A stretch of DNA of 64,000 nt from the sequence record NC_054929.1, one strand, 5' to 3'. The position numbers and the translations under genes were made by a program. The notes below the pieces were generated by a model, which was not told the DNA's origin, ran no database searches, and saw only the letters and a program-made list of their open reading frames with translations. The DNA is from Escherichia phage PE37. The stretch's first letter is position 1. Each line of letters starts with the position of its first letter. Shown here piece after piece: positions 2,528 to 13,493 of the stretch.

Positions 2528-3012
2528 TTTTAAAAACTCGCTGGTATGATTTAGATGACGGGGATGATGGCATTTCAGTTAATAGAGTTGACTGGAATGG
2601 CTGTTCCGAAGATATGAAAAATTTGCTGATTAGGGAGTTTAGAATGGGATATCAACCAGTTAAGCCATCTACTGCAACAGATGATAAATTCGTGTGTATT
2701 CATAATGGTCGCGCTAAATTAACGAACGCTGATTGGTTCACAGATAAAATTATGATTCTGTGGTATATTATTAGTCTTCCTGTGACATCATTCGTATTTT
2801 ACTTTTTTATAAAAAATCCAATGGACAGAATAGGAGATTGGATTCTTTTAACCATACTTGTTAATATTTTTACTGCAGCAATATTATCTGGGATATGGTA
2901 CACGTTCATTGAAATGCCATGGCGTTTACGCAGACAACAAAAGATTTTTGATGAAAAGAAATATACCCAAAATTTAAATAGCTTTATCACTGAATGCAGG
3001 AAATTAAAATGA
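2524..3012 (+). CDS. membrane protein, e.x paralog family (e.2 position)
   Basis: ATGA overlap with upstream gene; TM segments; C-terminal ...ECRKLK. Confidence 0.6.
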   Translation: MILKTRWYDLDDGDDGISVNRVDWNGCSEDMKNLLIREFRMGYQPVKPSTATDDKFVCIHNGRAKLTNADWFTDKIMILWYIISLPVTSFVFYFFIKNPMDRIGDWILLTILVNIFTAAILSGIWYTFIEMPWRLRRQQKIFDEKKYTQNLNSFITECRKLK

Positions 3013-3449
3013 AAACATTATCAGTTGGTATTATCTTTATGACAGAAGATAAAGATTTATTTATGGGTCGGGTTACTGGTTCTCGTAAGCCTGGAATGAT
3101 GGCACATCGCTGGGATATTCCAAAGGGCCGTGTAGAAAATTCTGATTTAAGCGCATTAGATGCAGCACGAAGAGAATGTTTAGAAGAGACTGGTTTTAGC
3201 AATTATAATCCAGACCTTCTAGAAGACCTAGGTGTATTTAAATATTCTAGTAATAAAGACTTACAGTTATTTTATTATACGATTCCAGTAGAGCATGAGA
3301 TGTTCAGAAATTGCCATTGCGAGTCTTATTTTGAAAATAAAGATGGTGTTATGATTCCAGAGATGGACGCTTTTGCTCTTATTCCTCATACTCAGTGGCA
3401 ATATGTGATGGGTCCTTCACTTTACCGAATAATGAACAACCTCTTTTAA
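3009..3449 (+). CDS. nudE: Nudix hydrolase NudE
   Basis: Nudix box G-x5-E-x7-REC-x-EETG; immediately upstream of e as in T4; start 3009 vs 2994 uncertain. Confidence 0.75.
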   Translation: MKTLSVGIIFMTEDKDLFMGRVTGSRKPGMMAHRWDIPKGRVENSDLSALDAARRECLEETGFSNYNPDLLEDLGVFKYSSNKDLQLFYYTIPVEHEMFRNCHCESYFENKDGVMIPEMDAFALIPHTQWQYVMGPSLYRIMNNLF

Positions 3450-4020
<571 letters not shown>

Positions 4021-4039
4021 AGTTACTTGGAGGGATAAA

Positions 4040-4456
4040 ATGACTCGTATTAATTTGACTTTAGTATCTGAACTTGCTGATCAACATTTAATCGCAGAAT
4101 ACCGTGAATTGCCACGTGTTTTTGGTATAGTTCGTAAACATGTGGCAAATGGTAAACGGGTTAAAGATTTTAAAATATCTTCCGAGTTTATTTTAGGTTC
4201 TGGTCATGTTACGTTCTTTTACGATAAGTTAGAATTTTTGCGAAAGCGTCAATCAGACATTATAACGGAATGCTTAAAACGCGGGTTTAGTATAAAAGAT
4301 ACTGAAGTTCCTGACATCGGCGATATTCCAGCAGAATGGAAAAATGATTATAATCCATGCAAATCAGCTATTAAATTGAGTCAACAACGACTCAATGAAA
4401 AAATTTTAATGAAGCCACACTGGTACAAGTATTACGGCAAAAATATTTACATTTAA
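4040..4456 (+). CDS. denV: endonuclease V, pyrimidine-dimer DNA glycosylase
   Basis: 138 aa, [17 protein letters not shown]..., matches T4 endo V. Confidence 0.95.
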
Positions 4457-4465
4457 AGGAAACAC

Positions 4466-4939
4466 ATGAAAACATATCAAGAATTTATTACTGAAGCAGC
4501 TATTAATTCTCAAATTATTGCTGAATCTTTTACTGATCTTTTGAAATTTAAAAAAGGTCAAAAAATCACTGCTGTATTGGATGATGGTACAGAAGTTGAG
4601 ATGGATGTACAGGGATATAATTATGCAGTAGATGGAAAACTGTATAATAAATCTCATGCTAAATTTGATTCATTTGACGACTTTGTTAATACAGTTGAAG
4701 ATGAAAAAACTCGTCGATCCATTGCAACTGGTGATGCTAAGGTTCTTATGGCACATGGTCATGAACGCATTCGCGCTAAACAGAATAAAATGGGCGAAGA
4801 TAATTTCGCATTAGTTGGTTATCAATCTGGTAAACAAACTTATGGTTATCAGCGTACTGCTACCATGTATAATAAAAATGGTAAAATTGCCTTTGTGAAT
4901 AGTAAGGGTTCTATTCAGTACGTTAAATCGTTCAAATAA
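4466..4939 (+). CDS. capsid internal protein (Ip family)
   Basis: N-terminal capsid-targeting sequence MKTYQEFITE with protease site after E; 157 aa, length differs from T4 ipII/ipIII. Confidence 0.75.
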   Translation: MKTYQEFITEAAINSQIIAESFTDLLKFKKGQKITAVLDDGTEVEMDVQGYNYAVDGKLYNKSHAKFDSFDDFVNTVEDEKTRRSIATGDAKVLMAHGHERIRAKQNKMGEDNFALVGYQSGKQTYGYQRTATMYNKNGKIAFVNSKGSIQYVKSFK

Positions 4940-5073
4940 TATGGGAACAGCCTGGACCTCATTTGAGGTATTCCCGCCAACCTGTAATAAGGTCGAGCCC
5001 AAGCGCGGTAATGGGTAAATACAGAAATGGACAATTCATGCGCCATGGAATGGCCCAAACTTAGAGAGAAGAA

Positions 5074-5613
5074 ATGAGAACATTTTTAACTGGTCCTTAT
5101 CTATCCCTGATGAATGCTTTTACACACCATTCTGATGCTAGAGTAGAAGAAATTTGTAAAAACGAATATATCCCGCCATTTGAAGACTTACTTAAGCAGT
5201 ATTGCACACTTCGTATAGATGGTGGACGTCAATCCGGTAAATCAACTGCTGTGACTAACTTTGCTGCTAATTGGCTGTATGATGGTGGAACAGTTATTGT
5301 TCTTTCTAATACTTCAGCTTACGCTAAAATTTCTGCAAATAACATTAAAAAAGAATTTTCTCGTTATTCTGGCGATGATATTCGATTCCGCTTATTTACC
5401 GATTCTGTCCGTAGTTTTATCGGTAATAAAGGAAGCAAGTTCAGAGGTTTATCGCTTTCACGAATTTTGTATATAATTGATGAGCCTGTTAAAGCTCCTG
5501 ATATGGATAAAATTTACGATATTCATATTGAAACTGTACATTACTGTTGCAATAGTAAATGCTGCATTGGTGGTATTACTCGTCCACAGTTTTTCATAAT
5601 CGGAATGCAATGA
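5074..5613 (+). CDS. small P-loop NTPase (vs.8 position)
   Basis: Walker A GGRQSGKST, Walker B ILYIIDEP. Confidence 0.6.
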   Translation: MRTFLTGPYLSLMNAFTHHSDARVEEICKNEYIPPFEDLLKQYCTLRIDGGRQSGKSTAVTNFAANWLYDGGTVIVLSNTSAYAKISANNIKKEFSRYSGDDIRFRLFTDSVRSFIGNKGSKFRGLSLSRILYIIDEPVKAPDMDKIYDIHIETVHYCCNSKCCIGGITRPQFFIIGMQ

Positions 5614-5939
5614 TGACAGACACACAGCTTTTCGAATATCTTTATTTTTCGCCAAAAACTATTAAAAATAAATTGGTGAATCATTTTGAAATTTTGGCAA
5701 ATAATAACGTCTTGAGCGAATTTTATCCTAAGCAATACAAATTACAAAAAGGCGTATTCAAAGGATGCAGAGTTTTGTGCACTGCTCCTAATGCAAGATT
5801 AATGAATAAAATTCCATATTTTACCATGGAATTTATTGATGGACCTTTTAAAGGACTAATCACCCAAAGTTTAATGGCATATGATTCTGAGCCATTTTTA
5901 ATTAAAGAACAGTCTTGGATAAATTTATTTTCTAATTGA
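5610..5939 (+). CDS. hypothetical protein
   Basis: ATGATGA overlap with upstream stop. Confidence 0.5.
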   Translation: MMTDTQLFEYLYFSPKTIKNKLVNHFEILANNNVLSEFYPKQYKLQKGVFKGCRVLCTAPNARLMNKIPYFTMEFIDGPFKGLITQSLMAYDSEPFLIKEQSWINLFSN

Positions 5940-10547: not shown

Positions 10548-10841
10548 ATGGCCTTAAAAGCAACGGCACTATTTGCCATGCTAGGATTAGCGTTTGCTTT
10601 ATCTCCACCGATTGAAGCGAATGTCGATCCTCATTTTGATAAATTTATGGAATCTGGCATTAGACATGTTTATATGCTTTTTGAAAATAAAAGCGTAGAA
10701 TCATCTGAACAGTTCTATAGTTTTATGCGAACGACCTATAAAAATGACCCGTGCTCTTCCGATTTTGAATGTATAGAGCGAGGCGCGGAGATGGCACAAT
10801 CATACGCTAGAATTATGAACATTAAATTGGAGACTGAATGA
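10548..10841 (+). CDS. secreted hypothetical protein
   Basis: SD GGAGG; signal peptide. Confidence 0.6.
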   Translation: MALKATALFAMLGLAFALSPPIEANVDPHFDKFMESGIRHVYMLFENKSVESSEQFYSFMRTTYKNDPCSSDFECIERGAEMAQSYARIMNIKLETE

Positions 10842-11224
10842 AATTCAGCGACTTTTCACAAAGTGGAAAACCTTCAAAGGCAGATGAATACTTAGGTTTA
10901 TTAATGGCTGCACAAGCTTATTTTCATTCTGCACATTTTGAAACTAAAAGTTATGCTAGACACAAAGCATACGATTTTATTTTCTCCGAGTTGCCAGATT
11001 TGATTGATAAATTTGGTGAGCAATATTTGGGGTATTCTGGTAGAAAATACACACCTTCAATTCCAGATGCCAGTAAACTTCCTACCGACACAATTAAAAT
11101 GATTGATCGCATACTAGACCAATCTAACAGCATTTATAAAGAAATGCCTCCAGCCATCCAAAGCACGATAGATGATATTACTGGAATGTTTTACCAGAGT
11201 AAATATCTTCTTTCCCTCGAATAA
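10838..11224 (+). CDS. hypothetical protein
   Basis: ATGA overlap; 128 aa. Confidence 0.6.
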
Positions 11225-12422: not shown

Positions 12423-12965
12423 ATGAAAGCTGTAATTGAAACAACTGATTTGTTCGGTAATCTAGTTATCGAAAAACGCGGTAATGTATATGTTCTGACG
12501 CAGGAAGACGATAGTATTATTATTCTTCCTATGGAACTGGCTGCGATTTTATCTTATGCTCCCTCAAGAGTTACCGGTGTAACTAATATTACAGACGACC
12601 TCCAAGTTCGTTTTTATCGTGGCCTTTACGGCGGTAATATTGAAACTGAATTTATGTGTCTTTCTATCAACAATTGGGCAACATTCGTTGCCAAGGTGAA
12701 AGAATTCTTGGAATCTGAAACAGTCGAAACACCCGAAAAGGCTAAACTTCAATGGGCTAAAGATCGCGGTGCTAGCATTATTAATCCAGTAGCTGCAAAT
12801 TATACTACGACTTTGGATGTCAAGACTTCTTATGAAGATGGCGATGTCGTACTTGTTCGCCAAATTGATGATTCTCGAGCACATATTGTCACATTTACCA
12901 AAGATGAAGCTATTGCACTAAAGACTTATCTTGATTCTGTCATTCCAACTATGATTTCAAAGTGA
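12423..12965 (+). CDS. hypothetical protein (paralog pair member 1)
   Basis: in-frame ATG at 12423; C-terminal EAIALKTYLDSVIPTM resembles next gene. Confidence 0.55.
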   Translation: MKAVIETTDLFGNLVIEKRGNVYVLTQEDDSIIILPMELAAILSYAPSRVTGVTNITDDLQVRFYRGLYGGNIETEFMCLSINNWATFVAKVKEFLESETVETPEKAKLQWAKDRGASIINPVAANYTTTLDVKTSYEDGDVVLVRQIDDSRAHIVTFTKDEAIALKTYLDSVIPTMISK

Positions 12966-12971
12966 GGAAAT

Positions 12972-13493
12972 ATGTTTATTTCAAGTGGAAGTGGTTTAAT
13001 TCGTGTTGAATTTAAAAATGACATCTTTCTTATTCAAGGAGATGATATTATTAAAATGAGTTATGACGAAATCAAGAAAATTTGTCATGCTCTTGAAAGT
13101 CATGGAAAAGTGAACGCTGTTATTGATATTGGCGATTTATGGGTGACACTTTATGAAGTATCCGAAGGATTTAACATTGAAGATGAAAATAACATTTTAG
13201 CTATTGATAAAAGAACTGATTTGTTTGATGTATTAAAAGTTTATGAACAGTCAAATGGCGGAAGAAAAGCTGTATTGATTTATCAAAAACCGCATTCATG
13301 TGGAACTGCTTCAATCATTTCAAATATTGAAGGCGAAGTTGATACTTATATGTGTGTTTTAAAAGCTGGTGGTGACCGTCATCCGGATTTTATTTCTATT
13401 CGTCAAAACAATGGAGAAATTTCATTGTCAAAATCAGAAGCTGAAGCTATGATTAAGTATTTAACAACCGTTACGCCTTCAATGAAAGGATAG
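12972..13493 (+). CDS. hypothetical protein (paralog pair member 2)
   Basis: SD GAGGAAA; C-terminal EAEAMIKYLTTVTPSM. Confidence 0.6.
   Translation: MFISSGSGLIRVEFKNDIFLIQGDDIIKMSYDEIKKICHALESHGKVNAVIDIGDLWVTLYEVSEGFNIEDENNILAIDKRTDLFDVLKVYEQSNGGRKAVLIYQKPHSCGTASIISNIEGEVDTYMCVLKAGGDRHPDFISIRQNNGEISLSKSEAEAMIKYLTTVTPSMKG

Follow-up and report, generated by a model that had tools for sequence, protein, structure and literature searches.

A predicted three-way-junction RNA motif in the spacer before vs.8 of T4-like phages and in the tRNA arrays of other phages

Several structured RNAs offer points of comparison for the element described here. The stable RNAs species 1 and 2 of phage T4 (rnaC and rnaD) are co-transcribed with the phage tRNAs, and their role is unknown. 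The boxB hairpin of the phage lambda nut sites (CCU-GAAAA-AGG) and the put sites of HK022 are small cis-acting phage RNA structures, and the GTPase-associated center of 23S rRNA is a three-helix junction (H42-H44) with a GUAAUA loop at 1093-1098. GOLLD and ROOL RNAs, several hundred nucleotides in size, are structured, often borne by phages or prophages, and often situated beside tRNA genes. Their co-transcription with tRNAs has been suggested (PMC5737381). The PeSL cassettes of T4-type phages are short conserved non-coding units at hyperplastic loci. The subject of this analysis is a 134-nt spacer at positions 4940-5073 of a 64,000-nt stretch of Escherichia phage PE37 (NC_054929.1; hereafter the window), which separates the stop codon of an ipIV-type internal-protein (ip) gene (TAA, 4937-4939) from the ATG of vs.8 (5074). 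The spacer holds an element with a 5′ hairpin (P1), a conserved core of ∼45 nt made of the helices P2, P3, and P4 (hereafter the junction), and a 3′ domain.

Comparison with these systems sets the element apart from each of them. Like rnaC and rnaD it is a structured small phage RNA co-oriented with tRNAs, but it shows no sequence or structure relation to them (our covariance model of the motif, R1, finds nothing there), and in T4-like phages it lies ∼6 kb downstream, between open reading frames (ORFs). GOLLD and ROOL are far larger, are held in Rfam, and do not match the element, which occurs in enterobacterial and uncultivated phages. The P3 hairpin, CCU-G(N)AAAA-AGG, is boxB-like; boxB has a pentaloop, however, whereas P3 has a hexaloop within a three-way junction, and no N protein or boxA is known here (no boxA search was made). 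The 23S rRNA center shares the three-helix junction and an identical GUAAUA hexaloop, but its helix order differs, R1 has no match in the Escherichia coli rrnB operon, and the loop of the element varies in relatives. The element resembles PeSL cassettes in having copies on both sides of an ip gene and in giving way to a promoter cassette in one lineage; unlike them, it lacks a promoter, has covariation-supported RNA structure, and occurs also outside the T4 superfamily. The junction has neither the constant downstream gene nor the expression platform of a riboswitch or cis-acting leader, although the 3′ domain could still be a leader. Present instead in the window are a P2 with covarying pairs and a bulged G and the P3/P4/UAA pattern of the relatives. 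Judged from this comparative evidence, the element is a phage three-way-junction RNA motif that was previously uncatalogued.

Anatomy and covariation of the junction

The R1 model matched the 64-kb window only once, at 4972-5020, with a score of 68.6 bits (E about 1e-22). In the window, P2 consists of A4979-U5012, C4978-G5014, C4977-G5015, and G4976-U5016, with G5013 bulged, and the bulged G is present in all 59 complete copies of 60. Across the family, P3 is near-invariant (ACCU/AGGU) with an RYRRNA hexaloop that reads GUAAAA, GUGAAA, GUAGCA, AUAAUA, or GCAAAA in relatives, P4 follows the pattern C(N)AGY-loop-RCGG with an A opposite a G, and the junction strand is UAA; positions 4980-5011 of the window agree with this pattern throughout. 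The ∼45-nt junction contains ∼24 invariant nucleotides, concentrated in loops and junctions, and compensatory variants of P3 and P4 occur in L126, L035b, L107, L165, and L185 (L numbers designate loci fetched for comparison).

Given an invariant core between heterogeneous flanks, the helices were defined by hand and then scored by pair counts; RNAalifold, applied to MAFFT alignments of all T4-like copies or of the type-B copies, gave poor or wrong consensus folds. For 41 distinct cores, 88.6% of the cells pair compared with 79.9% in shuffles, and for 60 distinct model-aligned cores, the values are 89.9% and 77.5%, with slid controls at 27-46%. The covariation score of the 60 cores was 0.331 versus 0.098, and none of the 500 shuffles attained it. 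When the alignment columns are ranked by mutual information, the three top pairs are precisely those of P2, namely 8-41 (AU32/UA13/UG9/CG5, no sequence unpaired), 7-43 (CG43/UA6/GC5/AU4/GU1, none unpaired), and 6-44 (CG43/GC10/AU5, one unpaired). Changes also occur at P4 pair 27-34 (CG50/UA7/GC1) and P3 pair 9-22 (AU58/GC2). The 9 + 13 G-U/U-G pairs of P2 form on the + strand only, which assigns the structure to that strand, the strand of the flanking genes. We are highly confident that the spacer is a conserved structured RNA and is neither coding sequence nor the remnant of an ip gene.

A sequence-only reading had singled out this spacer for its base composition and repeats, and that description held. 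The G+C content is 47.8% for the spacer and 56% for the core compared with a window mean of 34.2%, and just 0.28% of the 134-nt windows across the 64 kb reach the spacer's value. The nested inverted repeats (GGGAA, 4943-4947, and TTCCC, 4971-4975, around ACCTCA, 4956-4961, tt, and TGAGGT, 4964-4969) and the CCATGG palindrome (5043-5048) lie where they had been described. The nested hairpin is real and is kept by compensatory changes, but it is an accessory 5′ part, and the strongly conserved unit is the junction at 4976-5016. The palindrome is incidental; relatives read CCACGG or CCAAGG at this site, which serves as the loop in a small GCC/GGC hairpin. A single occurrence of the 19-mer CCTGTAATAAGGTCGAGCC was found in the window, with 0 expected. 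Scans agreed with the earlier statement that promoter, terminator, and convincing ORF are lacking: no sigma-70-like or promoter-like site was found within 4940-5073 (the GTTTAC-N17-AATTAT of JS10-type copies is not kept in other copies), the + strand of 3900-5700 yielded no intrinsic terminator (what comes after P1 and the GCC/GGC hairpin is G/C-rich or A-rich and not a U tract), and the ORFs inside the spacer span only 25-47 aa. ARAGORN called 0 tRNA or transfer-messenger RNA (tmRNA) genes in the whole window and never called the motif in other loci.

Table 1. Features of the spacer and its flanking genes in the window
Feature	Position	Strand	Description
ipIV-type internal virion protein gene	4466..4939	+	157 aa; DUF7412, PF24183 (E 6e-96); N-terminal MKTYQEFI targeting leader; context only
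P1, 5′ hairpin abutting junction	4943..4975	+	outer GGGAA/UUCCC, inner ACCUCA-UU-UGAGGU
Three-way-junction (3WJ) core	4976..5016	+	model R1 and covariation counts
P2 closing helix	4976-4979 with 5012 and 5014-5016	+	top mutual-information pairs
P3	4980-4983/4990-4993	+	ACCU-GUAAUA-AGGU, hexaloop GUAAUA at 4984-4989
P4	4994-5008	+	CGAGC-CCAAGC-GCGG; C4994-G5008, G4997-C5006, C4998-G5005; A4996 opposite G5007, G4995 bulged, loop 4999-5004
Junction strand UAA	5009-5011	+	conserved
3′ domain	5017..5056	+	variable hairpin region; AUGGAC 5027-5032; GCC(5042-5044)-AUGGAAU-GGC(5052-5054)CC
vs.8 translation initiation region	5057..5076	+	purine-rich AGAGAGAAGAA and ATG at 5074; TAG 5062-5064 in frame
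vs.8	5074..5613	+	179 aa; P-loop protein, phrog_1488; context only

Distribution and genomic context

The region 4300-5700 is a Tequatrovirus (T4-like) segment that is matched by 687 phage records at 80-99% identity, and the element lies upstream of vs.8 in most T4-like phages, T4 and T2 included. A sensitive BLAST search with the spacer matched 1006 phage records, extending through the T4-like genera down to Klebsiella Jiaodavirus (∼75% identity), and in JS10, KpV477, and isim, the matched stretch lies in unannotated intergenic DNA. A segment of 43-45 nt (4973-5017) is 93-95% identical to sequences in rV5-like Vequintavirus genomes. Further copies were collected by pattern scans of IMG/VR and metagenomes and then by the covariance model, which placed the core also in Pylasvirus (N4-like), Phapecoctavirus (phi92-like), a 360-kb jumbo-phage contig, ∼46-kb viral contigs resembling Klebsiella phages, and lineages without a cultured relative. 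Among the divergent copies, the L165 type has no isolate relative, and L107 has only its ∼40-nt core in common with isolates, matching T4-like phages.

Outside phages, the strict pattern gave 0 matches in 185,579 species-representative genomes of bacteria and archaea, the 23 matches of a loose 18-nt pattern in bacterial genomes were at chance level (≤20.7 bits), and BLAST found no match in 5,426 E. coli genomes. Searches with R1, its filters off, were negative for the rrnB operon, for the region of ssrA, and for the T4 region that spans the tRNAs, rnaC, and rnaD, and the element is not detectably copied from a host RNA. For Rfam 15, cmscan at E up to 10 over 4400-5600 returned no match overlapping 4940-5073, and at E up to 1 there was no match on the motif in 10 other motif-bearing loci; this test covers riboswitches, the hammerhead, twister, pistol, and hatchet ribozymes, the phi29 packaging RNA (pRNA), tmRNA, and Y RNA-like elements. 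Text searches of the literature for the sequence itself, for vs.8, and for small RNAs of T4 or of phage tRNA clusters turned up no account of the element. By sequence comparison, then, the core is a phage-specific structured-RNA family that is uncatalogued in Rfam.

The tRNA genes in the motif-bearing fetched loci are all on the motif strand, with none opposite. The core lies inside or beside tRNA arrays in Vequintavirus, Phapecoctavirus, Pylasvirus, the ∼46-kb contigs, and the uncultivated phages (the jumbo phage included), and most non-T4 phages have their closest tRNA at a distance of 44-600 nt; in L107, a few nucleotides separate a tRNA 3′ end from the beginning of the unit, and in L073, the core lies 46 nt downstream of the end of a tRNA. 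For the T4-like fetched loci, the tRNA cluster is 5.8-7.9 kb upstream on the same strand, a location that would precede window position 1. The gene after the junction varies, being vs.8, an ip gene (L015, L123, L134, and L201), phrog_3330 (rV5-like phages), or tRNAs. Lysis and/or terminase genes are found 2.4-2.5 kb downstream on the same strand in the rV5-like and phi92-like phages, and terS/terL are within 0.3-0.8 kb downstream in L150 and L033. In Pylas and the ∼46-kb contigs, whose resemblance is to Klebsiella phages such as KP591P1, the motif stands among tRNAs and tRNA-like elements without an annotated coding gene.

Other features were recorded at some of these loci. Next to the tRNAs, non-coding regions of Pylas (L029, ∼10647-10722 and 11040-11082) and of KP591P1 (L197, ∼3043-3075 and 3163-3268), the latter itself without the motif, contain tmRNA-like tag frames (ANDDVVLMAA and ANEEMYLAVA, each ending at a stop). 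They also hold a tRNA-like domain whose T-arm is GGTTCGA and whose acceptor-like stem is AAGAGCATT/AGTGCTCTT. No tmRNA is called by ARAGORN, and the Rfam tmRNA_permuted matches are weak only; the regions may be an unusual phage tmRNA. In rV5-like phages (L002, ∼2410-2445; L031 and L058, on both sides), the unit is bracketed by repeats of CCCYUAGAGGG(C/A)UUGAWAGUGC, a hairpin plus a TTGAYA-like box, which may be phage promoters or processing signals. For L027, L037, L041, and L050 (the Klebsiella phage-like viral contigs of ∼46 kb, together with related contigs from metagenomes), the unit is located between repeated acceptor-like arms, AGUGCUCUU and AAGAGCAUU, a stem of its own (GUUGUGAC/GUCACAAC) closes it, and the 5′ hairpin loop AAGCGGA can pair with the conserved downstream UUCCGAGG in a possible pseudoknot; these copies look like an RNA of ∼130-165 nt. 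The motif-bearing 96-kb viral contig L032 also carries a group I intron at 12784-13079 (Rfam RF00028, 54 bits).

Flanking modules and the start of vs.8

The spacer is made of separable modules, of which the first comprises P1 and the ∼41-nt junction (4943-5016) and the second is the 3′ domain (5017-5056). Compensatory changes maintain P1 in close relatives (GGGAG/CUCCC in L019 and CCUUAU/AUAAGG in L060), a longer type-B P1 of other T4-like genera is 94.9% paired (GC12/CG5/AU1 and CG11/AU9), and a hairpin of unrelated sequence also abuts P2 in non-T4 phages. The 3′ domain is specific to T4-like phages. Among the 46 distinct T4-like copies extracted, two GGA motifs in it are conserved, the second lying within a GCC-A(N)GGAA(Y)-GGC hairpin by which these copies were themselves selected. 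A stable P5 helix in the T4-type 3′ domain is not claimed, as the registers differ between subgroups. In Mosigvirus AlbertHofmann, P1 and the junction are swapped for an early-promoter cassette, with the joint lying exactly between GG and GTAAATACAG, and the 3′ domain is kept behind the promoter as the 5′ untranslated region (UTR) of vs.8. Its retention after loss of P1 and the junction identifies the 3′ domain as a separable module, and it is probably the 5′ leader of vs.8.

The same early-promoter and ribosome-binding-site (RBS) cassette (GAATTGTGATAGTATATTCA...TTGGAGG) lies upstream of denV at 4000-4040 of the window and at 1465-1502 of L200, and it follows the ip gene in Klebsiella phage K65PH164; it looks like a mobile PeSL-type shuffling cassette. 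In K65PH164, two element copies flank the ip gene, the second being degenerate, and tandem or duplicated copies occur in L035/L038/L070, L176, and L201. The divergent second junction of the tandem copies in L035 (5092-5251), L038 (9020-9180), L070, and L176 (829-962) has a GCCU/AGGC P3 and a shortened P4 (CAGY...RCGG), and the L176 junctions are 37 nt apart. Within the vs.8 leader, the two conserved GGA motifs are in apical or loop positions (5027-5032 and 5042-5054). A CsrA-bound leader would have two or more A(N)GGA motifs in hairpin loops near the RBS, and the JS10 version of the leader, AUACAUGGAUGA, resembles the SELEX consensus of CsrA. The vs.8 leader may be CsrA-controlled, a prediction drawn from this likeness.

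The + strand of the window carries nudE (2994-3449), the e lysozyme gene (3486-3980), denV (4040-4456), the ipIV-type gene, the spacer, and vs.8, thus giving the order e-denV-ipIV-element-vs.8, whereas the order in T4 is e-ipIII-ipII-denV-element-vs.8. The sequence-only reading had suggested the remnant of a second ip gene on the grounds that ipII and ipIII are in tandem in T4; the spacer is, however, ∼95% identical to the T4 sequence that starts right after the denV stop and runs into vs.8 (window 4963-5073 is equivalent to T4 NC_000866, L001, 3292-3413, minus strand), and the homologous T4 sequence thus follows denV and not an ip gene. The proposed alignment to ipII and ipIII, carried out by tblastn and blastn of the spacer, gave only noise (best E 0.14-0.7), and the remnant idea is therefore refuted.

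The GenBank record of T4 Vs.8 (NP_049732) describes a 219-aa protein whose ATG lies inside the loop of the P1 hairpin and whose frame reads through the RNA element; in T4, the 54 codons that precede the conserved start in this frame are all open. In the window, this N-terminal extension is closed by an in-frame TAG (5062-5064). Among 43 distinct scorable T4-like copies, the conserved start reads M(R/K)(T)FLT, and 19 have the upstream frame shut within 0-4 codons. Element and vs.8 ATG are 14-26 nt apart in most distinct T4-like copies, a variation that does not go in multiples of three. On the basis of the in-frame stops and the variable distance, we conclude that the element is non-coding and that the T4 annotation makes vs.8 too long; a 179-aa Vs.8 is predicted from the conserved start, as at position 5074, and the start in T4-type annotations is to be corrected to this form. 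Vs.8 itself matches the terminase-large-subunit ATPase profile phrog_2 weakly (E 8e-7) and AAA_14 below threshold, and some GenBank records label it "terminase" or "DNA packaging protein." This match and the downstream terminase genes prompted consideration of a pRNA-like packaging RNA, which was rejected (no Rfam pRNA match, and loops that are not complementary); T4 packaging works in vitro without RNA.

Candidate roles of the junction

We propose that the junction would be transcribed within the denV-ip-vs.8 message and would fold autonomously, its invariant loop, bulge, and junction nucleotides providing a recognition surface for a conserved macromolecule. The partner would most likely be an enterobacterial host factor linked to tRNA or translation, to RNA processing, or to RNA polymerase. 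In phages with tRNA arrays, the element would probably be excised with the tRNAs as a small stable RNA, and in T4-like phages, it may act inside the mRNA or after excision. An autonomous RNA module is favored over a gene-specific riboswitch because the junction is kept irrespective of the downstream gene, is present in non-coding tRNA regions, is sometimes duplicated, and is dispensable in one T4-like lineage. A protein-binding, processed, or trans-acting module is a tentative assignment to which we give somewhat less than even weight; blended with the far firmer structured RNA, it makes what we regard as probably the best explanation as a whole. The small RNA or processing site proposed from the sequence alone is thus upheld as a structured, conserved RNA with covariation on the transcribed strand, and its processing is something that we only infer.

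Several observations count against this explanation. Single-sequence folding is no better than that of shuffles on either strand (z = +0.30 on the + strand), and of the folding and covariance checks that had been advised, it is therefore the comparison with other sequences on which the case rests. The minimum-energy fold forms neither P2 nor P4, and P2 of the window has three Watson-Crick pairs and one G-U only. All homologues other than those from BLAST were fetched by patterns that fix parts of P3, P4, and GGUAA, so the near-invariance of these parts is overstated by ascertainment; a third search pattern left P4 free, and P4 was again conserved, with compensatory changes. The shuffle statistics overstate independence because the sequences are related by descent and horizontal transfer. 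The position of the element in T4-like phages, ∼6 kb from the tRNA cluster and directly 5′ of one gene, fits a cis role.

Such a role, in which the whole spacer would be a riboswitch-like or protein-controlled leader that sets translation or stability of the vs.8-vs.7... message, is the best surviving alternative, although we consider it unlikely. It is consistent with the short distance to the vs.8 start, with the two GGA motifs resembling CsrA sites, and with the 3′ domain outlasting the junction to stand directly behind a promoter as a 5′ UTR. The junction is not tied to vs.8, however, and elsewhere precedes an ip gene, a phrog_3330 protein, or tRNAs; the Pylas core shares ∼1 kb of untranslated sequence with the tRNA-like domain; neither a terminator nor a conserved RBS-sequestering pairing was found; and Mosigvirus expresses vs.8 without the junction. 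A cis leader role is most plausible for the 3′ domain only.

Slightly less likely again is a processive antitermination RNA of the HK022 put or lambda nut/boxB type, in which the junction would bind RNA polymerase or Nus factors and allow read-through of untranslated tRNA arrays into downstream late, lysis, and terminase genes. The co-orientation with tRNA arrays, often from an upstream position, the downstream lysis and terminase genes of the rV5-like and phi92-like phages, L150, and L033, and the resemblance of P3 in its CCU-GUAAAA-AGG form to boxB agree with this mechanism, and the near-identical core in unrelated enterobacterial phages fits a conserved host target such as RNA polymerase. 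The element comes after the visible tRNAs in L073, L107, L148, L150, and L032, however, and is mid-operon between translated genes in T4-like phages, its loop is a hexaloop rather than a GNRA-like five, and no downstream terminators were identified.

We consider improbable a new small self-cleaving ribozyme or a dedicated RNase-processing signal that would segment polycistronic or tRNA-array transcripts. The compact size and the number of invariant nucleotides are typical of small ribozymes, and the unit abuts tRNA 3′ ends and lies exactly between ORFs in T4-like phages; nevertheless, no Rfam ribozyme family matches, no candidate cleavage site can be named, and the conservation is partly ascertainment. 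A DNA-level element devoid of RNA function, whether an ip-gene recombination patch or PeSL-like cassette boundary or a packaging or protein-binding site, is more doubtful still. The locus is a shuffling hotspot (the upstream neighbor is denV in T4 and an ip gene in the window, copies flank the ip gene in L201, and a cassette identical to window 4000-4040 replaces the element in Mosigvirus), and terminase genes are nearby in some phages, but a recombination patch predicts neither the compensatory changes nor the one-strand G-U/U-G pairs, and the element is conserved in tRNA arrays of unrelated phages without ip genes. Coding sequence, either the 40 N-terminal residues of T4 Vs.8 or a decayed second ip gene, is scarcely credible despite the open T4 frame, the 219-aa record, and the two tandem ip genes of T4, given the TAG in the window, the shut frames and the indels that are not multiples of three in relatives, the lack of ipII/ipIII similarity, and cores that lie outside ORFs in other phages.

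Returning to the autonomous RNA module, the near-identity of the junction across unrelated phage families, together with its freely covarying closing helix, suggests that it has been selected to be recognized by a shared partner. A more far-reaching possibility, which we hold with slightly less conviction than the protein-binding module, is that the junction would be the signature domain of an unrecognized class of phage non-coding RNA, spread horizontally among unrelated virulent enterobacterial phages, T4 itself among them, and binding one conserved host machine. The candidates are RNA polymerase, the ribosome, translation factors, enzymes that process or modify tRNA, and a defense nuclease directed at tRNA, the last put forward on the likeness of UGUA/UGUG in the P3 loop to GUN anticodon loops. 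The motif is an addition due to the RNA family catalogues. It is present in T4, T2, and ∼1000 sequenced relatives, hidden in T4 beneath the over-extended vs.8. T4 is the best-studied virulent phage, and the question of a common partner is directly testable by standard T4 genetics and RNA pull-downs. If the reading as a new non-coding RNA class is true, the junction would act as a decoy or recruiter or would even be a new small ribozyme, and it would be the first functional structured regulatory RNA of T4.

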